From the IMG/VR virus record IMGVR_UViG_3300006104_000013, positions 1 through 64,000 of that record: a stretch of DNA of 64,000 bases. The stretch is one strand, 5' to 3'. The stretch is from a virus. A program made the position numbers and the translations under genes. This document shows, in pieces, positions 8,948 through 24,734 of this stretch. Positions within the stretch are counted from its first letter, which is position 1. Each line of letters begins with the position of its first letter. Below the pieces are notes generated by a model. That model had not been told where the DNA came from. It saw only the letters and a program-made list of their open reading frames with translations, and ran no database searches.

Positions 8948-9139
8948 CTATTTTTTAGAAATTGGCCGGGCTTTTATGTAGCCTGATCCCTTGGTTTCCC
9001 ACCCGGCGCTATCGGCATCGGCGAAGGCTTGCGCATAGCATTTCATGATGGTGCTCTGTTCAACATTGAATTCGCGCAACGACCATGCGGCGTTGGTGGC
9101 TTTCTTGGGTCGGACGTCAATCGCAATGGTTAGTTTCAT
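8948..9139 (-). CDS. hypothetical protein
   Basis: 63-aa ORF, SD GGAG. Confidence 0.6.
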   Translation of the reverse strand: MKLTIAIDVRPKKATNAAWSLREFNVEQSTIMKCYAQAFADADSAGWETKGSGYIKARPISKK

Positions 9140-9227
9140 GTTTTAGAGTCTCCGAAATCGCCAGGTTTTTGCCGGGCGGGCTGATTAGGTTCTTGTTAAA
9201 AAATGCTTTGGTTTCTGGTCCCCCGTT

Positions 9228-9569
9228 TTAGTTTTCCGGGGGGTAGTCGCGGTAGAGTCCGGCGAGGGCGGTACGGATCTCGCGCACCCGGTTTTCCCAA
9301 TAGGGAGTCATGCGCTGCCGCAGGAAGGTGCGTTCCAAATTTTCGATGGCGGCATGCTTGGCGTGGTCAGGCACGGACTCGTCGTCGTTGATTTCTTCAA
9401 GGGCGTCGAAGTAATCCCGCTTGATGTGGGCCAAGAGCTTTTTGGCGAAGAATAGATTCTTCTCAAGTTCTTCGGCCAGCCCCGGCAGGTGACGGGGGTA
9501 GCCCATTAGGGCGTCGTATCCGGCGTCGGTTAAGCTCTCGTCTTCGGGGGCAATGTATGCTTTCGTCAT
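9228..9569 (-). CDS. hypothetical protein
   Basis: SD AAGGAG directly after hammerhead HH3. Confidence 0.75.
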   Translation of the reverse strand: MTKAYIAPEDESLTDAGYDALMGYPRHLPGLAEELEKNLFFAKKLLAHIKRDYFDALEEINDDESVPDHAKHAAIENLERTFLRQRMTPYWENRVREIRTALAGLYRDYPPEN

Positions 9570-9583
9570 TTTTGTCTCCTTGT

Positions 9584-9636
9584 GGCACTCGTCAGTATCC
9601 GCCTTACGGATAGACCGGGTTGCCCCGGTTTCGGCC
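9584..9636 (-). ncRNA. hammerhead ribozyme type II (HH3)
   Basis: Minus strand GGCC-GAAAC-CGGG gcaa CCCG-GTC-TATCCG taagg CGGATA-CTGACGA-GtGCC; predicted cut between 9613 and 9612. Confidence 0.9.
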
Positions 9637-9860
9637 TATTTGATGGAATAGCTTACGGTGCCGTCGTCCCATGCCGTGATGCGGGCGTGTTCGCGCTTGG
9701 TCTCGGTGTCCCGATACATCGGGTCCACGTAATCGCCTTCCAGCGGGGCAATCGGCGGGTTTTGATAGCGGCGGAATCCTTGATCCAAGAGGTAGGTTTC
9801 AATCTCGTGGATTTTGGCGTCTTGGGCAGACGTAAGCCCGGTGGTGATGGCTTGCTTCAT
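9636..9860 (-). CDS. hypothetical protein
   Basis: Start MKQAITTG; TAG stop abuts HH3. Confidence 0.7.
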   Translation of the reverse strand: MKQAITTGLTSAQDAKIHEIETYLLDQGFRRYQNPPIAPLEGDYVDPMYRDTETKREHARITAWDDGTVSYSIK

Positions 9861-9864
9861 GGCG

Positions 9865-10140
9865 CTATTCCCCCTTGGCCTTGGCGATGGCGGCGCGGGC
9901 TTGTTCCGCAAACTGTTGGCATAGGATGGCTTCGCCCATCACTGCCCCGTTATTTCCGCTATCGTGTGCCAGCAGAATGCGCTCAAGCGCAGCCAGCAGT
10001 TCCGGCGCGGCAATGATCAGATTGGCGGTTTCCGTGTCGTAAGCGTCTGCAATGTGGTGTCTTGCGGAGTCTTCAATGCGGTAAAGGCGGTTGTTTTCAG
10101 CGTCGATTCCGTCGATAGCTGCCCATGGTGTTGCTGTCAT
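9865..10140 (-). CDS. hypothetical protein (ANLIIAAPELLAAL family)
   Basis: Common phage early motif; SD GAGG after HH2. Confidence 0.75.
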   Translation of the reverse strand: MTATPWAAIDGIDAENNRLYRIEDSARHHIADAYDTETANLIIAAPELLAALERILLAHDSGNNGAVMGEAILCQQFAEQARAAIAKAKGE

Positions 10141-10169
10141 AGTCTTAATCCCTCGTTAGCTTTGCTGAC

Positions 10170-10222
10170 GGCCTCGTCAGTGTGGGCACAACCCACAGAC
10201 CGGACAGAATCCGGTTTCGGCC
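10170..10222 (-). ncRNA. hammerhead ribozyme type II (HH2)
   Basis: Minus strand GGCC-GAAAC-CGGA ttctg TCCG-GTC-TGTGGG ttgtg CCCACA-CTGACGA-GGCC; intact core; predicted cut between 10198 and 10197. Confidence 0.93.
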
Positions 10223-10243
10223 TTTAGTCTTGGTCCCAGAAGC

Positions 10244-11098
10244 CTAAGCAATACTGGATTCGCTTATCAATGTACTTAAGAGCGCCTTCTGGCGTGGTGC
10301 ATTCTTCGTTGTAGCCTTCGTTTGGGTGGAGTCCGGGGAATATGATTGCCCCCTGTCTTTTGTCGCCATGTCGGTGGGGTGATTAACGCCCATGGCAGTA
10401 AAAACTTTTTCGATGTCATAACCGCCCTTATAGACGTGCTTCAGGGACTGGATTACAGCAAAGTAAAGGCGACGAATGAAGGAAGGGTGTGCGATGATAA
10501 AGGCGAGTTTATCAAGGTCTAGGGCCTCCCCAGATTCCTTTGCGACAAGTGAAAAATCAAGTAACCGGCCTGTAATTTCCGACCCACATGCGCAAGAAGA
10601 AACAACAACTTCGGCGCTGTATCCTTCGTCTTCCAGCCGGTCAATGTAGGACAGGATGGAAACCCCCCAATTGGTAATTTCCTGCATGCTGGTCATGGCT
10701 GCGTGTGAGGCTGCCCCGATTTCGATTCGCACAATCTTGTTTGAGGGGCCTTCTTCAAGGTCACGGTAGACCATGCAAAGCGGATCGCCAGCAACAGCGG
10801 CAGGGATGCAGGGAAACGCCCCGGCGACGTCCAGCACGTTGACCGGGTGCAGGACTGTCTTGGTTAGGGCGAATGCGTCGTTTAGGCGCTCCACAATCAT
10901 GTGACGGCCTTCTGCCCAGCCAGTGCGGGCTACTGATATTGCTTCGCTTAGGGAGTCGGTCCCCCGAAACTCCCTATTGCCACGTTCAACAGAAGACGAT
11001 CTTTGCCACACTGGTGGGTGAGCTTCGATATAGGTCAGCATTTCATCAAGGCTAACAAAACCCATATCAATTCTAGTCGGGCCATATGTCAGTTTCAT
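10244..11098 (-). CDS. VWA-like partner of the AAA+ ATPase (DUF7192-like), with a probable frameshift near its 3' end
   Basis: DVAGAFP.IPA...GDP.CM, IDRLE..GY, LD.DKLAF...HPS..RR motifs; directly downstream of the AAA gene. Confidence 0.75.
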   Translation of the reverse strand: MKLTYGPTRIDMGFVSLDEMLTYIEAHPPVWQRSSSVERGNREFRGTDSLSEAISVARTGWAEGRHMIVERLNDAFALTKTVLHPVNVLDVAGAFPCIPAAVAGDPLCMVYRDLEEGPSNKIVRIEIGAASHAAMTSMQEITNWGVSILSYIDRLEDEGYSAEVVVSSCACGSEITGRLLDFSLVAKESGEALDLDKLAFIIAHPSFIRRLYFAVIQSLKHVYKGGYDIEKVFTAMGVNHPTDMATKDRGQSYSPDSTQTKATTKNAPRQKALLSTLISESSIA

Positions 11099-11102
11099 GG
11101 TT

Positions 11103-12584
11103 TTACTTCCCCATCTTGGCAGGCAGACGAACCGACATGGCGGATTCGATCTTGGCGCGCTGGTCGGCCTTGACGCCTTGCCACAAGCAGCGGTTTGCGA
11201 CGTCGCGCGGGTCTTCACCACGACGCAAGGCTTTTGCCCCTTTGAACGATGATCGGGGCGAGATGATGGACCGCACGTCTAATTCAGTGGCGGCGCGGCG
11301 GGCGTCCCGAACATAGGCAACCCATTGATCATGCCCGGCCAAGTCTTCAATGCGATGATCGTAGGCCATGGCGAATGTATAGAAGCGGTTCAGAGTCGCC
11401 CCATCCAGTTGATTGCGTCCCACATAGATGCGGTCAGCGCCCAACCCGTAGGTATTGGCTGCGGCCATGATGTGAAAATCAGGGTGGCGCTCAATCATGC
11501 CGTCTGGAAAGTCCATGTTCCCGTTTTCAATGGCGGCGTTCAGAACCAAGAGGACTCCGGGATGTGAAGCATCAACTTCGTCCAGCAGGAAGAGTCCACC
11601 GTTCTGATAGGCGTCCCGGAAGCGAGTCCGAACATAGCGCCCTTGGGCGTCCATATAGCCGGTCAGCTTGTAGGGCGAGTCAACGGCACCGGCCATAGCG
11701 AAGCCCAAGCCCAAGGCGTTGGCGACTTGTTCCGCAAGGGTGGTTTTTCCAGAGCCAGCCGGGCCTACCAACATGACGTTTTCCCCATCAGCCACGGCTT
11801 GCAGCACTTCGGTGAAGATTGGGTGATAGACGGCATCCGGCAGAGTCCGCGACTCTGTTTGGGTTTGGATGGTCAGCACAACGGAGTCGCGCTTGATGTT
11901 CTTGAGCCCTGCGTCAATCAGGTTTGCGACGTCTTCCAGAGTCGCGGCGTGTTGCTTGACCAAGCGCACAACGGTGGCCTCGTCAATTTCGACCTTGGGC
12001 GTCAATGTCTGCATCAGCAGTTGCAGAGCGGCGAGTTGGTCAGTGGTGGCAGCGGCTGTCATTGTCGTCTCGGTTTCCTTTTGCTTGAGGATGGATTTAT
12101 AGTATTCGGCGGAATCTTCGTCGGCTTCGACTTCGACCCATCCAGCGTCTGGTTCGTTGTCGTCAGGGTGGACAGGCACGTATCCTCGTCCGGTAATCTC
12201 GTAGTACACGGCCTGCTCGTCGTCTTCGGCCATAGCGGCAGTCAGCGCCTGGTATTTGGCTTGATGTGCGGCAAGGGCAGCGGCTTCGTCGAAGATCGGC
12301 GTGGGTGTCAGCAAATCGGGCTTGGTGGCGGTGATGTGCGGGCCAGTCCCGGCAATGTCGTTGTGCAAGTGCACGTCGGTGGTGTCGTTGTAGTATTTCA
12401 ACATCTGGCCGCACGTCGCGCGATTGACGAAGAGTCCGGGATCGGTCAAGCCAAGCTCCACCACATGGGCGCGAAGCCAATTGCGCACTTGCCCCCGATT
12501 GTCGGTATCCACCTTGGGCAGAGTCCCGCGATACCAACCAATCTGTTGGGTCAGCTCTCCGGCAGAGTGTTTAGGCTTTGCCAT
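11103..12584 (-). CDS. MoxR/CbbQ/CobS-type AAA+ ATPase
   Basis: Walker A GPAGSGKT, Walker B LLDEVD, AANT.G.G...YVGRNQLD.ATL.RF. Confidence 0.92.
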   Translation of the reverse strand: MAKPKHSAGELTQQIGWYRGTLPKVDTDNRGQVRNWLRAHVVELGLTDPGLFVNRATCGQMLKYYNDTTDVHLHNDIAGTGPHITATKPDLLTPTPIFDEAAALAAHQAKYQALTAAMAEDDEQAVYYEITGRGYVPVHPDDNEPDAGWVEVEADEDSAEYYKSILKQKETETTMTAAATTDQLAALQLLMQTLTPKVEIDEATVVRLVKQHAATLEDVANLIDAGLKNIKRDSVVLTIQTQTESRTLPDAVYHPIFTEVLQAVADGENVMLVGPAGSGKTTLAEQVANALGLGFAMAGAVDSPYKLTGYMDAQGRYVRTRFRDAYQNGGLFLLDEVDASHPGVLLVLNAAIENGNMDFPDGMIERHPDFHIMAAANTYGLGADRIYVGRNQLDGATLNRFYTFAMAYDHRIEDLAGHDQWVAYVRDARRAATELDVRSIISPRSSFKGAKALRRGEDPRDVANRCLWQGVKADQRAKIESAMSVRLPAKMGK

Positions 12585-12586
12585 GG

Positions 12587-12823
12587 TTAGACTCCTACGC
12601 TGGTTTCGGCCAAGGCCCAGCCCTTGGGCGCAAGGTTAATGATGTGGCTTAGACTGGGCTTGCCATCCAAGTACGTTTCAAAGCCCATGCGGCGAGCGCA
12701 TTCAAGCTGGTGCTCGTTCAGGGTTTTGACGCCAATGGCGTCGGCATAAGCCTGCGACTTGACGCAAGCCGGGTAAATCTTGGTCTGTCCGTAGACGCTC
12801 TTGGCGGTGAATTGCATAATCAT
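12587..12823 (-). CDS. hypothetical protein
   Basis: KSVYG...IYP.C..S......G.KTL pattern; SD AGGAG. Confidence 0.75.
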   Translation of the reverse strand: MIMQFTAKSVYGQTKIYPACVKSQAYADAIGVKTLNEHQLECARRMGFETYLDGKPSLSHIINLAPKGWALAETSVGV

Positions 12824-12827
12824 GGCG

Positions 12828-13028
12828 TTAGACTCCTTTGGCTTTGGCGACGGCGGCACCAATCTCTTCCAGCATAGTCGCGTGGTGGGTGGGAACAAAA
12901 TCCAGCGCCGACTCTAACGTCGTCAACATCATGTCAAAGGCTTCGGCGGCTTCGTAGAGTCGCATTTGGGTATCCACATTGCGCTCCAATTGGGCGCGGT
13001 CTCGGATGATTTGCGCGTAATCAATCAT
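12828..13028 (-). CDS. hypothetical protein
   Basis: SD AAGGA after HH1; ends AAVAKAKG. Confidence 0.7.
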   Translation of the reverse strand: MIDYAQIIRDRAQLERNVDTQMRLYEAAEAFDMMLTTLESALDFVPTHHATMLEEIGAAVAKAKGV

Positions 13029-13055
13029 GGTCTTCATTCCTTGGGTAGTTCTGAC

Positions 13056-13108
13056 GGCCATCGTCAGGTGACGCCACACGTCACGACCCGGCGAACCGGG
13101 TTTCGGCC
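13056..13108 (-). ncRNA. hammerhead ribozyme type II (HH1)
   Basis: Minus strand GGCC-GAAAC-CCGG ttcg CCGG-GTC-GTGACG tgtgg CGTCAC-CTGACGA-t-GGCC; predicted cut between 13085 and 13084. Confidence 0.9.
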
Positions 13109-13242
13109 TAGCGGTTTCTGATCTGCTCCAAGGCCAGCGCATAGCGGACAGCCGTAGCGCGGTGGGTGAAAGCGAAGGGGCGGCGACTCGCTTCGGGAAC
13201 GTTCCAGCCCTTTTTGGTGAATTTTACAGTGCAGGTGTTCAT
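13108..13242 (-). CDS. 44-aa early protein
   Basis: SD AAGGAG; TAG stop abuts HH1. Confidence 0.65.
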   Translation of the reverse strand: MNTCTVKFTKKGWNVPEASRRPFAFTHRATAVRYALALEQIRNR

Positions 13243-13255
13243 GATCTCGACTCCT

Positions 13256-13414
13256 TCAGACCGGCAGGCCAGCGGCATGGTTAGCGGTGACAACATCCAC
13301 CATACGATAGACACAGCGATGGAAGCTGGACACGCCATGGCGATAGTCTTTAGTAAACCGGAAGCCTGTGACCTTCATGGCCGGAACAAGCAGGTAAGCG
13401 ATGAATGTGCGCAT
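13256..13414 (-). CDS. first early gene, 52 aa (MRTFIAYLLV...; not in ORF track)
   Basis: SD GAGGAGG, open frame read by hand to TGA at 13258-13256. Confidence 0.7.
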   Translation of the reverse strand: MRTFIAYLLVPAMKVTGFRFTKDYRHGVSSFHRCVYRMVDVVTANHAAGLPV

Positions 13415-13431
13415 AGTCCAAATCCTCCTCA

Positions 13432-13480
13432 GTGGTTAACCAGTAAGAGAACACTAGCATGATAACGCAGGCGCTTGCAA
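13432..13480 (-). promoter_or_regulatory. early sigma70-type promoter P1
   Basis: Minus strand TTGCAA-18-TAGTGT with extended -10 TG, then ACTGGTTAACCAC. Confidence 0.7.
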
Positions 13481-14173
13481 GCATTTTGTAGAGTCGGAGT
13501 CGCGCAAGCCCCAACCCCAACCCACGCGCCGCCCCCAGCCGTTCCCCTCTCCCTCTCTAAGCTGCGCAGCACGAAATTTTTTTGCAGGATCCAGCGCCCC
13601 CAAATCCACCGTCCCACCAAATCACCGTCGGACACGATCAACCCACAGACAGGGGTAAAACACCCCAAATCAGACCACAGACCATGCGCTATGCTCGATT
13701 CTCAGCGCCTTCGTTGTCGCCGATCGTATCATTGCACACTCATATCGGCCACAGCGCCTGCGATATCCGCCACAATCCCGGTTTTAAGGGGACAGCGCCA
13801 CATCCAGCTATCCACCACACCCAGAGACCACACCCACACTTCCCCACCATCTCCCACACCACAGCCAGGGGAAAGCCAGCACCACAGACCCAAAGCCCGG
13901 TCAACGCGCGTCGCACCACATCAAAAGACTTTGCCGGGTACAGCGCCAGCACTGCCCAATCCATCCTCTCTCCTATCAGATACCACCATAGACCAAACAC
14001 CTTCGGTCTCGCTCTCAACCGATAACAGATGTCCACCACAACGCCAGTCACATCACGTGCGGATAATGCAGAAAACGGGGGAAGGCATTCGCGCGGAGGG
14101 GAAGCGGCTCATTGACAGCGTTCAGAGTCGAGGCGTTTTCCTGTGCGCGTGACCTTCACTCGGAGTCGGCTTT

Positions 14174-14566
14174 ATGGCGCGTAAACACACCCGTACCAAA
14201 GTGACGGCAGCAGCCCTCGAAGCCCTTGAAAACGCTAGCGAAGGCGCGGCGCAACGTCTCATTTACCTCTCGACCCATGCCCTTGACGCCAAGGTCCAAT
14301 TGGCAGCGGTCAACAGCATATTGGACAGAGTCGGCATTGGGGCGACCAACACCACAAGGGCTGATCCGAACGCCGAGGCCCAAGCCCAGCTCGCCCTTGC
14401 CGTCTCTCAGATGAACATGAACGAACTGTTGGCGCTTCGGCAGGCCACGACTCTGTTGGTCGAAGCAAGCAAGCGCGGTCCCGATCCCATCACCATCGAC
14501 CAGCCACTACATATAGAGCACGACCCTGCCCCCACCGTCGCCCCAGGCCCAGACGACGACGAATAG
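14174..14566 (+). CDS. probable terminase small subunit
   Basis: VQLAAVNSILDRVG helix motif, SD GGAG, first rightward gene. Confidence 0.6.
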   Translation: MARKHTRTKVTAAALEALENASEGAAQRLIYLSTHALDAKVQLAAVNSILDRVGIGATNTTRADPNAEAQAQLALAVSQMNMNELLALRQATTLLVEASKRGPDPITIDQPLHIEHDPAPTVAPGPDDDE

Positions 14567-19235: not shown

Positions 19236-21420
19236 TCTGACGAAGTGTCAACCTGATCAGCTTAATGATTTGCTCAACAAAAAGCTGGCAGAAATGTCGC
19301 TGTCTGAGTTTCTTAAGCAATCATGGCGCTACTTCGACCCAGGGAACTATTCCCATAACTGGCATATCGATGCGATTTCAGAACATCTGATGGCCGTCAA
19401 TGTCGGGCAGATACGGAATCTGATTATCAATATCCCGCCGCGCCACATGAAGTCGTTGTCAGTTGCTGTCGCTTGGCCAGCCTGGACGTGGGCGCAACAG
19501 AGAGACCCTGACTTTCCTTTGCTCGGACCAGCCGTCCGATGGATGTTTGCATCCTATGCGCAGAGTCTGTCGCACCGCGACTCTCTGAAGATGCGCCGAC
19601 TGATCGAATCAGGGTGGTATCAGAAGAACTGGGGGGATCATGCGAAGATCACCGGAGACCTTGATCGTAAAGAGCGCTACGAAACGACCGTCGGAGGGTA
19701 TCGCCTAGCAACATCCGTCGGCGGTGCGCTGACTGGTGAAGGCGGTGATATCATTGTCTGCTTCCCACCATGGGAGGTCGTCTGGACAGACATTGGGCCG
19801 ATGCAATTTATGGACGTCGTAAAGCGGAGATACCAGGGGAAGGTCTGGTCGTATTCTGCAAAGAACGGGATGGAGCTCTGCCAAATTATTGGATGGCATA
19901 CCAACCCATCGCGTCCGCTTGTCGTTGTTGAGTTTGAAAATTGCCCGCCACTTGTCTGCACCGAGGATCACCGTATTCTTACGGAAGAGGGGATGCTGGT
20001 GGCTGTGGGGCGGCTGAAGCCAGGAACTTTGATTCTTGACCCCCTGCTCAAGCGGGAAGGGTTGAAAGGCTCCAAGATCTTTAAAGGTCTTCGGCCATGG
20101 GATCACCCGCCGAAGCCGACGTACTGCATAACCGTCGAGAAGAACCATAATATGCTGGTGGGGCGATCGCTATTGATCGCTGCCAACTGTGACGACCCAT
20201 TGAATGCTAACGACGCCAATTCTGACGTTCTGCGCCAAGGGGTTCTGACGTGGTGGGATGAGTCCATGCAATCACGTTTGAACGATCCGAAGACCGGGGC
20301 GAAGGTCATCATTATGCAACGACTGCATGAAGACGATCTGACTGGCCACATCCTCCAGAATGACCGCAATGGGGAATGGTGTCACCTGATGCTTCCGGCC
20401 GAATATGATTCGTCTCGGCACTGTTTCACATCGATCGGATGGGAAGACCCTCGGACTGAAGACGGGGAAGCCCTGTGGGAAGAGAGAGTCGGGACAAAAG
20501 AACTGAATACCCTCAAGGCCGCCATGGGTCCATACGCGTTTGCTGGGCAATATCAGCAGAGTCCGCAGCCGCGTGGTGGTGGGATTATCAAACGCGAGTG
20601 GTGGAACCCATGGCCAGGAGAGGATGAATTGCGCGAGGGTGTGAACACATCGTTCCCGCCATTTGAATATGTCGTCGCCTCGCTCGATACTGCTTTCACC
20701 GAAGACGAGGAAAACGATTACTCAGCTCTGACCATCTGGGGCGTCTTCCGCGATATGGGGTCAAAGTTTGTCGCTCCCCGCCTTGTCACCGATGTGAATG
20801 ATCGTGGCGAAACGATATTGATGCCGCAGGAAGAGCAGCCAAAGGTGATGCTGGTCTATGGTTGGCAAAAGCGCCTGACCCTGCACGGCCCACCGGAAAA
20901 AAAGCCGGATGGGGTCAGCCAGGAAGAATGGGATTCTCCAGCTTGGAGAGGATATCGCCGGGAGAACTGGGGGCTGGTGGAGTGGACGATTGATTCGTGT
21001 CGCCGGTACAAGGTCGATCGCCTGCTGATCGAAGGAAAGGCTTCCGGTTTGAGCGTTGTTCAAGAACTGCGCCGCCTCTATGCCAATGAGCGGTTCTCGC
21101 TGGAAATCACCAACCCAGGCAGAATGAGCAAGGTTGCCCGCGCCTATGCCGTTGAGCCACTGTTTGCCAATGGTCAGGTCTATGCTCCCTATCTGATGCT
21201 GAAGAATGGCGTCATCTGTTCGCGGTCGTGGTGCGATCAGATCATTACCCAGTTCACACAGTTCCCCAAAGCAACACATGACGACCTTGTGGACTCCAGC
21301 CTGCATGCGCTTCAGCACTTGCGTGATATAGGCATGGCGCTTCGCAAGGAAGAGGTGGAGGCAGAGTGGGACGACTCTTTATTGATTCGAGCGAGCGAAA
21401 GGCCACTTTACGATGTCTGA
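19225..21420 (+). CDS. terL: terminase large subunit with intein
   Basis: INIPPRHMKS Walker A, Walker B split by intein (IIV|CDDP), IMQRLHEDDL, YQQ.P, SLDTA and HDDLVDS nuclease motifs. Confidence 0.96.
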   Translation: MAFDLTKCQPDQLNDLLNKKLAEMSLSEFLKQSWRYFDPGNYSHNWHIDAISEHLMAVNVGQIRNLIINIPPRHMKSLSVAVAWPAWTWAQQRDPDFPLLGPAVRWMFASYAQSLSHRDSLKMRRLIESGWYQKNWGDHAKITGDLDRKERYETTVGGYRLATSVGGALTGEGGDIIVCFPPWEVVWTDIGPMQFMDVVKRRYQGKVWSYSAKNGMELCQIIGWHTNPSRPLVVVEFENCPPLVCTEDHRILTEEGMLVAVGRLKPGTLILDPLLKREGLKGSKIFKGLRPWDHPPKPTYCITVEKNHNMLVGRSLLIAANCDDPLNANDANSDVLRQGVLTWWDESMQSRLNDPKTGAKVIIMQRLHEDDLTGHILQNDRNGEWCHLMLPAEYDSSRHCFTSIGWEDPRTEDGEALWEERVGTKELNTLKAAMGPYAFAGQYQQSPQPRGGGIIKREWWNPWPGEDELREGVNTSFPPFEYVVASLDTAFTEDEENDYSALTIWGVFRDMGSKFVAPRLVTDVNDRGETILMPQEEQPKVMLVYGWQKRLTLHGPPEKKPDGVSQEEWDSPAWRGYRRENWGLVEWTIDSCRRYKVDRLLIEGKASGLSVVQELRRLYANERFSLEITNPGRMSKVARAYAVEPLFANGQVYAPYLMLKNGVICSRSWCDQIITQFTQFPKATHDDLVDSSLHALQHLRDIGMALRKEEVEAEWDDSLLIRASERPLYDV
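19759..20187 (+). mobile_element. mini-intein (143 aa, no homing endonuclease)
   Basis: Starts CFPP, block B CTEDHRI, block F TYCITV, ends AAN before +1 Cys. Confidence 0.92.
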
Positions 21421-24656: not shown

Positions 24657-24734
24657 TGGTCAGGGTGAGTGGATTTGAACCACCGGCCTCTGCATTCCGA
24701 GTGCAGCGCTCTACGCAAACTGAGCTACACCCTG
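24657..24734 (-). tRNA. tRNA-Pro(CGG)
   Basis: CAGGGTG acceptor, CTGCA-CT-CGG-AA-TGCAG anticodon arm, GGTTCAAATCC T arm, encoded CCA. Confidence 0.92.

Follow-up and report, generated by a model that had tools for sequence, protein, structure and literature searches.

Hammerhead ribozymes of bacteria and phages were discovered in 2010-2011. In the hammerheads of viroids and satellites and in the HDV ribozyme, bases of the ribozyme are sequestered by a competing helix (attenuator or Alt pairing), and these alternative folds limit self-cleavage in time or extent and stabilise the cleaved or ligated form. The RiboJ insulator, placed in bacterial 5′ leaders, combines a hammerhead with a hairpin immediately downstream, and Kennedy et al. 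reportedly engineered, in 2013, a cis-blocking strand, i.e., a short appended sequence complementary to the hammerhead. The type II hammerheads of phage and prophage operons (RF02276) have closed stems I and III and an open stem II, and for clustered prophage copies, cleavage of polycistronic RNA was demonstrated both in vitro and in vivo (Perreault, 2011, PMC3088659). According to de la Pena (2017, PMC6155905), it is still to be settled what hammerheads do in bacteria and phages and whether they are regulated. A search of the openly accessible literature found no description of a core-masking tail in natural type II hammerheads.

The window, i.e., the whole analysed stretch of 64 kb, originates from a freshwater phage and contains on its minus strand two complete type II hammerheads with such a tail (HH1 and HH2, identified by sequence reading and pattern match) and a third one without it (HH3). 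They have the same core and the same closed and open stems as RF02276, and, as in RF02276 phage clusters, several copies flank single genes or short blocks on one strand, presumably for the processing of polycistronic RNA. In the RF02276 consensus the tail pairs with loop I in an activating pseudoknot, whereas in the window it is predicted to pair with the catalytic core. Furthermore, unlike the consensus, HH1 has A9 and G10.1 separated by an extra U, and the three copies score below the gathering cut-off. As far as De la Pena and Flores (2001) are cited in PMC2632901, the CChMVd plus-strand hammerhead also has an extra nucleotide between A9 and G10.1. HH1 and at least 10 relatives resemble it in one extra base (U) at this junction with the remaining core intact, but differ in the phage type II context and in that the extra U enlarges the anti-core loop from 4 to 5 nt.

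By analogy with the alternative folds of viroids, satellites and HDV, ribozyme bases would be captured by a competing helix in the phage elements. The competitors of the former are long-range pairings in a replicating circular RNA genome, whereas the phage tail is a 5-nt appendix in an mRNA-processing ribozyme of a DNA phage and is balanced against a 4-bp stem II. The tail resembles the cis-blocking strand as a complementary appendix and RiboJ as a 3′ hairpin; those are designed parts, whereas the phage tail is natural and, unlike the full block of engineered cis-blocking strands, appears tuned to near-equal energy. A RiboJ-like insulation of the ribosome-binding site was rejected, the predicted accessibility being unchanged by the hairpin.

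Hammerheads and anti-core hairpins in the window

The hammerheads, their hairpins and the neighbouring genes are located as follows.

13108..13338, minus strand: small ORF of 76 aa upstream of HH1, no family match; its UAG stop overlaps stem II
13051..13108, minus strand: HH1, complete type II hammerhead (pattern match; RF02276 26.6 bits, E 5e-4, model 1-66)
13108-13105, 13104-13101 and 13100-13087, minus strand: GGCC, GAAA and stem III hairpin of HH1
13086 and 13085, minus strand: U16.1 and C17 of HH1; predicted cleavage between 13085 and 13084
13084-13068, 13067-13061 and 13060, minus strand: stem I hairpin, core CUGACGA and extra U of HH1
13059-13056 and 13055-13051, minus strand: GGCC and tail GUCAG at the 3′ end of HH1
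13051..13067, minus strand: predicted anti-core hairpin of HH1, CUGACG-AUGGC-CGUCAG (6 bp; -7.0 kcal/mol, z -3.96)
12828..13028, minus strand: first gene after HH1, 66 aa, AUG at 13028, AAGGAA 9 nt upstream of the AUG
11103..12584, minus strand: AAA_5 / MoxR-CobS-like ATPase, 493 aa (PF07728, 9.9e-13; phrog_249, 2.4e-53)
10244..11221, minus strand: DUF7192 protein, 325 aa, last gene before HH2 (PF23822, 7e-29; phrog_1909)
10165..10222, minus strand: HH2, complete type II hammerhead (pattern match; RF02276 25.9 bits, E 8e-4, model 1-66)
10222-10219, 10218-10215 and 10214-10200, minus strand: GGCC, GAAA and stem III of HH2
10199 and 10198, minus strand: U16.1 and C17 of HH2; predicted cleavage between 10198 and 10197
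10197-10181, 10180-10174, 10173-10170 and 10169-10165, minus strand: stem I hairpin, core CUGACGA, GGCC and tail GUCAG of HH2
10165..10180, minus strand: predicted anti-core hairpin of HH2, CUGACG-AGGC-CGUCAG (6 bp; -7.1 kcal/mol, z -3.36)
9865..10140, minus strand: first gene after HH2, 91 aa (phrog_1273), Shine-Dalgarno GAGGGA, AUG at 10140
9584..9636, minus strand: HH3, type II hammerhead without anti-core tail (sequence read; RF02276 30.7 bits, E 4e-4)
9636-9633, 9595-9589 and 9588-9584, minus strand: GGCC of HH3, overlapping the UAG stop at 9638-9636, core and GUGCC
9613, minus strand: C17 of HH3; predicted cleavage between 9613 and 9612

HH1 and HH2 follow the order GGCC-GAAA-stem III-UC, cleavage site, stem I-CUGACGA-(U)-GGCC. 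In all three copies CUGACGA and GAAA, which correspond to the core positions C3-U4-G5-A6-N7-G8-A9 and G12-A13-A14, occur in the correct order and spacing, and the hammerhead pattern was matched four times compared to 0.34 expected. The A15.1-U16.1 pair and a cleavable H17 (GAAA-C...G-UC, with the cut after UC) are present in 3/3 copies and are followed by stem I. Stem I (6-7 bp) and stem III (5-7 bp) are hairpins, and the two ends are joined by the GGCC/GGCC stem II, which corresponds to the type II permutation. The stem sequences differ among HH1, HH2, HH3 and at least 138 relatives with the pairing preserved. The N10.1-N11.1 pair adjoining the core is G-C in HH2, and the extra-U variant of HH1 recurs in at least 10 relatives, tail-bearing and tail-less alike. 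From this sequence evidence we infer that HH1 and HH2 are self-cleaving.

The RF02276 scores of HH1, HH2 and HH3 (25.9-30.7 bits) are full-length matches from searches with short stretches and lie below the gathering cut-off of 37. No hammerhead was reported by a search of the whole window against Rfam, either at the gathering threshold or at E<=10, and searching the record of this phage with RF02276 yielded no more than one weak match of no relation (16.8 bits, 20805-20844). No pairing of the tail with loop I is detectable; the complementarity of the tail to the core explains the sub-threshold scores of these copies under standard models, in which the loop I pseudoknot is expected. In the whole 99.5 kb record, the pattern search identified no further real hammerhead.

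An earlier note on this DNA had described a hairpin in which a tail directly 3′ of HH2 and HH1 is complementary to the catalytic CUGACG. Both hairpins could be confirmed with exact sequences and positions: CTGACG-N4/5-CGTCAG has exactly two matches in the 64 kb window (10165-10180 and 13051-13067), compared to 0.01 on average in the shuffled window, and 0/100 shuffles reached two. HH3 indeed lacks the tail, as was also claimed, since its core is followed by GUGCC-ACAAGGAG; it is located directly upstream of the Shine-Dalgarno sequence AAGGAG (9581-9576) and the AUG at 9569. The hairpin loop has 4 nt in HH2 (A9 and G10.1-C10.3), where C10.4 pairs with G8, and 5 nt in HH1 (A9, the extra U and G10.1-C10.3). 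With C3-G8 and C10.4 paired and G10.1-C10.3 looped out, the hairpin and the catalytic fold are mutually exclusive. The exclusion of stem II proposed in the note is borne out by the whole-element minimum free energy structures (RNAfold), in which the hairpin is chosen and stem II is dropped for HH1 and HH2.

Tail and core in related hammerheads

For the comparison with relatives, IMG/VR was scanned blind to the tail with the pattern GGCCGAAAC..CTGANGA(N)GGCC, which resulted in at least 120 loci. In total, at least 138 distinct hammerheads were compared; the sample covers the GGCC-type stem II plus two GGUC/GACC copies. Among the matches listed, an exact 6-mer complement of the own core is found within 30 nt in 47/138 and within 6 nt in 43/138, while the chance rate is about 0.6%; roughly one in three members of a large phage family have the tail. 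The feature is widespread: contigs from MAGs or prophages in several bacterial phyla contain the same form. Two matches of the genome scan, in Bosea vestrisii (L132) and in Pirellulales (L137), showed no clean hammerhead fold and were left uncounted. With the DUF7192 protein as the query for related loci, no relatives were found.

The earlier note had named covariation in homologues as a check, and it was found at the only variable core position of the hairpin. Among the matches listed, the tail CGUCAG accompanies 34 of 67 relatives with N7=C and CAUCAG 13 of 59 with N7=U, whereas crossed N7/tail pairs and tail-bearing copies with N7=A or G are absent (0 each; Fisher p 7e-12). An alignment of 47 distinct rows among these matches, picked blind to both letters of the N7-tail pair, contains 34 C-G and 13 U-A pairs with 0 wobbles and 0 mismatches, and the observed pairing was matched in 0/500 shuffles. 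Two relatives (L025 and L107) differ within the ribozyme by one loop base, N7 U->C and tail A->G, and by nothing else. Both pair types are present in the group with an extra C in the loop (L013/L090), in the U-insert group (L022/L114) and in the group with the GGUC/GACC stem II (L116/L021), and compensatory changes of the N7-tail pair occurred in at least four sub-lineages. Clustered at 90% stem identity, the 43 tail-bearing copies among the matches listed form 34 groups. Contigs from four freshwater DNA runs were identical in sequence, with no variants; among the public runs listed, no RNA run contains this phage. The pairing is kept through matched mutations, which therefore points to a selected two-state device; judged from these comparisons, selection maintains the tail-core hairpin as a real alternative to stem II, and neither chance nor shared descent accounts for it.

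Since catalysis keeps the core constant, no covariation is possible at the remaining five of the six hairpin pairs, and a C-G/T-A covariation would fit a DNA palindrome equally well. Both points speak for an origin without RNA function, by chance, recent duplication or as a protein-bound DNA palindrome, which is nevertheless extremely improbable. The two palindromes of the window exceed the chance expectation of 0.01, HH1 and HH2 have no common stem or flank sequence, and the compensatory changes are spread over the sub-lineages given above. The hairpin loop is of variable length (4, 5, up to 13-19 nt), with the catalytic core invariably forming one arm, and in one relative (L115) the pair is kept as G-U (tail GUUAG), which fits RNA only.

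N7 is dispensable for hammerhead catalysis. This counts for a role of the tail within the active structure, either in a pseudoknot of loop I with the 3′ tail or in a tertiary pair to a flipped-out N7, as does the pairing that most type II hammerheads form between loop I and the nucleotides directly downstream of stem II (Perreault, 2011, PMC3088659). Such a role has very little probability here. The complementarity of loop I to the tail is 2.95 compared to 3.14 in the swapped-tail null (p 0.99), no pseudoknot signal above the swapped-tail control was detected in tail-bearing or tail-less copies of the GGCC family, and neither UUGUG nor UGUGG, the loop I sequences in the window, fits GUCAG. Furthermore, the entire 6-mer is complementary to C3-G8, which are occupied in the catalytic pocket, and not only to N7.

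Energy balance of the two folds and a probable competitor helix

The computed energy of the hairpin state minus that of the hammerhead state has a median of -0.8 kcal/mol (IQR -0.8 to -0.7) among the relatives and is -0.7 (HH1) and -1.1 kcal/mol (HH2) in the window; these nearest-neighbour energies leave out the tertiary stabilisation of the hammerhead and the coaxial stacking between stem I and the hairpin. The true equilibrium could be located far to either side of balance: with a strong preference for the active fold, cleavage would not be slowed by the tail, and with a strong preference for the hairpin, the ribozyme would be almost inactive. Both helices are limited in length among the matches listed. 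Stem II is restricted to 4 bp in 131/131 copies, with A at 11.5 and never U at 10.5, and the hairpin could be extended beyond C3 in 4/43 copies compared to 37.5% expected (binomial 3e-5). A core-complementary appendix within about 1 kcal/mol of the active fold indicates selection on an OFF or post-cleavage state besides catalysis.

On balance, the tail probably acts as a tuned competitor helix, reducing the active fraction ahead of the cut and capturing the core after it; this model builds on the folding energies and the covariation. HH1 and HH2 would cut a long minus-strand phage transcript between genes. GUCAG after stem II, together with C10.4, would pair with the core C3-G8 in a 6-bp hairpin beside stem I, and the loop of this hairpin would take three of the four 3′-strand bases of stem II, which excludes the catalytic fold. 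Before cleavage, the two near-isoenergetic folds should interchange faster than the chemistry, so that the tail would set the active fraction and hence the rate and extent of cutting at the junction. Adjacent alternative mRNA helices are reported to interchange rapidly in vivo (Mahen, 2010, PMC2817708). After cleavage, stem II would be a 4-bp contact between separate RNAs, and the intramolecular hairpin would take the core and make the cut irreversible. The downstream mRNA would start with a 5′-OH and two adjacent hairpins.

The earlier note had proposed either that the 3′ product is stripped off after cleavage and re-ligation blocked, or that only part of the transcripts is cut. The hairpin covaries, is about 1 kcal/mol from the active fold and, after cleavage, outcompetes the intermolecular stem II in the computation (-7.1 for the hairpin vs. 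-5.9 for the bimolecular GGCC/GGCC duplex at 1 M); the covariation and the near-equal energy therefore make both partial cutting and a capture of the 3′ product after cleavage physically reasonable. In this model, cleavage would be slowed by the hairpin, and the lock or the 5′ structure would be of importance in the cell.

The computed advantage of the hairpin once the RNA is cut would also fit a purely post-cleavage function. The active fold would then dominate before the cut, and the tail would turn what is left of the core into a second 5′ hairpin on the downstream mRNA that blocks re-association and re-ligation and protects or insulates the 5′-OH leader. Transcription reaches the tail once the last ribozyme strand has been made, and the hairpin abuts stem I without a spacer, so the 3′ product begins with two adjacent hairpins and no unpaired 5′ base. 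We regard this explanation as possible but rather doubtful. The 4-bp stem II alone holds the products and should free them unaided, so that product release would hardly need help. The predicted accessibility of Shine-Dalgarno and AUG in the 3′ product is alike with and without the hairpin (0.56 vs. 0.55, 0.62 vs. 0.65), and since any hairpin protects a 5′ end, targeting the core would be needless. Moreover, a lock would tolerate G-U or a 5-bp helix, yet 47/47 rows among the matches listed are Watson-Crick at N7 and the hairpin length is held at 6 bp, which therefore points to a finely set energy.

A tuned competitor helix would represent a natural minimal design for tunable self-cleaving insulators, and as an experimental handle it comprises just 5 nt, with a ready compensatory pair at N7. 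A lock seems unnecessary where 4 bp alone join the products, a point against the competitor helix.

Stop codons, start codons and a proposed ribosome coupling

The AAA_5 / MoxR-CobS-like ATPase gene is part of the block delimited by HH1 and HH2. Downstream, the tail ends 22 nt before the AUG at 13028 (HH1) and 24 nt before the AUG at 10140 (HH2). A promoter and terminator scan of 9000-14500 gave results for the minus strand no better than for shuffles. Stem II had been described in the earlier note as beginning at or next to the upstream stop codon. This applies to HH1, where the UAG (13110-13108) ends on the G with which GGCC begins, and likewise to HH3, but not to HH2, where the DUF7192 stop UAG (10246-10244) is located 21 nt before stem II; the UAA at 10226-10224 that adjoins HH2 is in a different frame from the DUF7192 ORF.

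The note had further suggested that a terminating ribosome biases the choice of the fold and couples cleavage to translation. For the window, this part found no support: the HH2 stop is 21 nt away as given above, and, among the matches listed, tail-less hammerheads have a stop codon 2-9 nt ahead of stem II just as often, a neighbouring stop being general in this group. Furthermore, a terminating ribosome would cover the 5′ strand of stem II and not the hairpin.

In a broader form, the fold would be chosen by a ribosome, another factor or a condition, either by a ribosome terminating at the upstream stop or by a 30S subunit at the downstream start, and cleavage would thereby be coupled to translation. 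Balanced energies are expected for such a switch, and the stop codon overlapping stem II at HH1 and the short distance of 22-24 nt from the tail end to the next AUG are in line with it. Still, a gated switch of this kind is distinctly unlikely. The spacings from stop to stem II and from core to start are the same in tail-bearing and tail-less copies, the upstream stop of HH2 is 21 nt away, the terminating ribosome would mask the 5′ strand of stem II in every copy rather than the hairpin, and 12/43 tail-bearing relatives among the matches listed have no detectable Shine-Dalgarno start nearby.

One group of relatives also favours gating. In the U-insert sub-lineage, a second CUGA+N7, which contains the upstream UGA stop and is able to pair with the tail, is present in 7/11 copies among the matches listed. 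HH1 and HH2 are outside this sub-lineage and have no such third element, which argues against gating in the window. As a tentative possibility, these phage elements may be natural regulated hammerheads in which the tail provides a tunable or gated cut for each junction and the relatives with the third element are gated by a terminating ribosome. If so, the tail of HH1 and HH2 and its absence from HH3 would mean that cut strength is set copy by copy, and in the third-element relatives the cleavage of a polycistronic RNA would report the translation of the upstream gene. This would be the first natural conditional hammerhead and would give phage hammerheads a concrete function.

In the three-element copies of the U-insert sub-lineage, coupling to the stop codon would be plausible from the modelled folds: with the third element free, the extended hammerhead was computed to be 2-3.8 kcal/mol below the hairpin, and with the element occluded, the hairpin wins.

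Hammerhead anatomy and gene setting

Three intergenic elements on the minus strand show the complete anatomy of a type II hammerhead. In order, this comprises GGCC as the 5′ strand of stem II, GAAA followed by a closed stem III, U-C followed by the predicted cleavage site, a closed stem I of 6–7 bp with a 5-nt loop, and CUGACGA followed by the 3′ strand of stem II.

13051–13108, minus strand: HH1, followed by two small ORFs and the genes of an AAA_5/CobS-like ATPase and a DUF7192 protein
10165–10222, minus strand: HH2, followed by two small ORFs
9584–9636, minus strand: HH3, followed by more small ORFs

The Rfam model RF02276 aligns over its full length to all three elements, with scores of 30.7 (HH3), 26.6 (HH1) and 25.9 bits (HH2), all below the gathering score of 37. 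The three did not arise by recent duplication, given that their stem sequences are unrelated. HH1 carries an extra U between A9 and G10.1, which recurs in many relatives; a precedent for an extra base at this position in a viroid hammerhead is cited in PMC2632901. A weak RF02276-like match on the opposite (plus) strand (20805–20844, 16.8 bits, E = 0.05) is probably noise.

The layout between gene blocks is that of the clustered prophage hammerheads described by Perreault et al. (2011; PMC3088659), for which cleavage was shown both in vitro and in E. coli. The minus strand carries genes from about 7 to about 17 kb of the window, and no convincing intergenic promoter or terminator was found on this strand between 9000 and 14500. 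The window covers the first 64 kb of the full 99.5-kb IMG/VR record. At least eight freshwater metagenome runs of 2017 yielded contigs that match positions 9400–13400 exactly, with zero variant letters; the sampled phage population is clonal over this region. Furthermore, a tRNA-Pro(CGG) was detected by ARAGORN on the minus strand (24657–24734; Rfam 66.1 bits).

The anti-core hairpin and its covariation

The earlier note had reported a core complement directly 3′ of two of the hammerheads, and its positions and bases are correct to the letter: CTGACG-N4/5-CGTCAG is present at 10165–10180 and 13051–13067, two matches in the window against 0.01 expected. The final C of stem II (C10.4) together with the tail GUCAG forms the complement of core positions C3–G8. 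The short hairpins were calculated at −7.1 and −7.0 kcal/mol, and RNAfold on the whole element returned stem III, stem I and the anti-core hairpin, with stem II dropped. HH3 is without the tail, as had also been noted; its GUGCC is immediately followed by the next gene's Shine-Dalgarno sequence. In HH1, stem I (13068–13084, minus strand; GUGACG/CGUCAC) is nearly a copy of the core/tail pair (13051–13067; CUGACG/CGUCAG), so that a 5-bp pairing of the tail with the stem I 5′ strand is also conceivable. The resemblance may be accidental, be left over from a local duplication, or assist strand exchange.

Relatives were collected from IMG/VR with a pattern that ended at the 3′ GGCC and left the core base N7 free, so the tail played no part in the choice. 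A general detector run on the resulting loci (at least 120) identified 138 distinct type II hammerheads, among which the crossed combinations (CAUCAG with N7 = C, CGUCAG with N7 = U) were not found.

Own-core complements within 30 nt, among the matches listed
N7 = C: 67 copies, 34 with CGUCAG
N7 = U: 59 copies, 13 with CAUCAG
N7 = A or G: 12 copies, 0 with the complement

For the covariation analysis suggested in the earlier note, rows were chosen by CTGANGA + 3–6 nt + CNTCAG only, with both N free (55 rows, 47 distinct). The sole freely varying pair, N7 with its tail base, is Watson-Crick in 47/47 distinct rows (C-G 34, U-A 13, wobble 0, mismatch 0), a result reached by 0 of 500 shuffles. Between loci L025 and L107, the ribozyme differs at only three positions: N7 (U/C), its tail partner (A/G) and a single loop base. 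Both pair types occur in the extra-C loop group, the U-insert group and the GGUC/GACC stem II group, and the 43 copies with the complement within 6 nt fall into 34 clusters at 90% stem identity (among the matches listed). Judged from these alignments, the compensatory changes are independent. The anti-core form is also found in MAG or prophage contigs of several bacterial phyla. The pairing in a blind sample, the independent changes and the wide occurrence identify the anti-core hairpin, by comparative criteria, as a conserved RNA structure, present in about a third of the sampled hammerhead family with HH1 and HH2 as typical members.

The published type II consensus contains a pseudoknot between loop I and the 3′ tail (Perreault et al., 2011; PMC3088659), from which the anti-core tail differs; this reading was rejected, as real combinations of loop I and tail were no more complementary than those made by exchanging tails among copies. 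An effect on the Shine-Dalgarno or AUG accessibility of the next gene was likewise rejected, since the predicted accessibility in the 3′ product is unchanged. No description of a core-masking tail in natural type II hammerheads was found in the literature searched, the coverage of which was incomplete.

In four loci (L041, L054, L105, L015), the exact anti-core 6-mer lies at a greater distance downstream, with loops of about 13–23 nt instead of 4–5, so the masking segment is not bound to one position. Tail-less loci (e.g., L003, L006, L017, L035, L045, L060, L065, L071, L075) share another recurring motif, AG + 2–5 nt + G(U/A)C(U/C)UCA(C/A) or AG-NN-GCC, which pairing with loop I did not explain in the test applied; some of their tails contain CGUC, which could pair with the core GACG.

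Energy balance and candidate mechanism

In a nearest-neighbour model, the hammerhead and hairpin states are separated by a median of 0.8 kcal/mol among the matches listed, and by 0.7 (HH1) and 1.1 kcal/mol (HH2), the hairpin being lower in both. In all 131 hammerheads with a 4-bp stem II (L002–L121 and the window), the base just 5′ of the GGCC strand (11.5) is A and the base just 3′ of the opposite strand (10.5) is never U; stem II is therefore capped at exactly 4 bp. The hairpin could be extended past C3 in 4 of 43 copies versus 16 expected (among the matches listed). This cap and the rarely extendable hairpin keep the energy balance in place. That N7 is paired strictly by Watson-Crick rules, and that G-U intermediates are missing from the rows examined, also suggests that a difference of one or two kcal/mol is important.

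Exchange between the 6-bp hairpin and the 4-bp stem should take well under a second. From this expectation and the fast in vivo exchange of adjacent mRNA helices reported by Mahen et al. (PMC2817708), we infer a pre-equilibrium before cleavage, in which the tail would determine the fraction of active molecules. Once the RNA is cut, stem II would be intermolecular (−5.9 kcal/mol at 1 M versus −7.1 for the hairpin), and capture of the core by the hairpin would make the cut irreversible. The downstream mRNA would then begin with a 5′-OH and two abutting hairpins. A tail serving as a lock only would keep this capture and dispense with the competition, which we consider rather unlikely; we lean slightly towards the combined reading of a tuned competitor that then becomes a lock.

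Upstream stop codons and a three-element variant

The earlier note had placed stem II at or next to the upstream stop codon, where a terminating ribosome might bias the choice of fold. The position holds for HH1 and HH3, in which UAG shares its G with the start of stem II, but not for HH2, where 21 nt separate the DUF7192 stop from stem II and the adjacent UAA is not in frame. The coupling is not supported for this window: a stop 2–9 nt before stem II is equally common in tail-less relatives and is therefore a general packing feature outside the hairpin device.

A variant with three elements carries a second CUGA+N7, holding the UGA stop of the upstream gene, 4–5 nt 5′ of GGCC (L009 at 519–582 and 833–896, L010, L114, L117, L121, L022, L133, L136); it is absent at HH1 and HH2. 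Among the matches listed, it occurs in 7 of 11 tail-bearing copies with the U insert, one of these seven having CUGAU with N7 = U, versus 1 of the 32 that lack it. Pairing of the tail with the second CUGA+N7 is possible and would lengthen stem II. The extended hammerhead was computed to be 2–3.8 kcal/mol more stable than the anti-core hairpin when this element is free, and occlusion of the element favours the hairpin, so that in this model the variant would be a translation-sensing arrangement.
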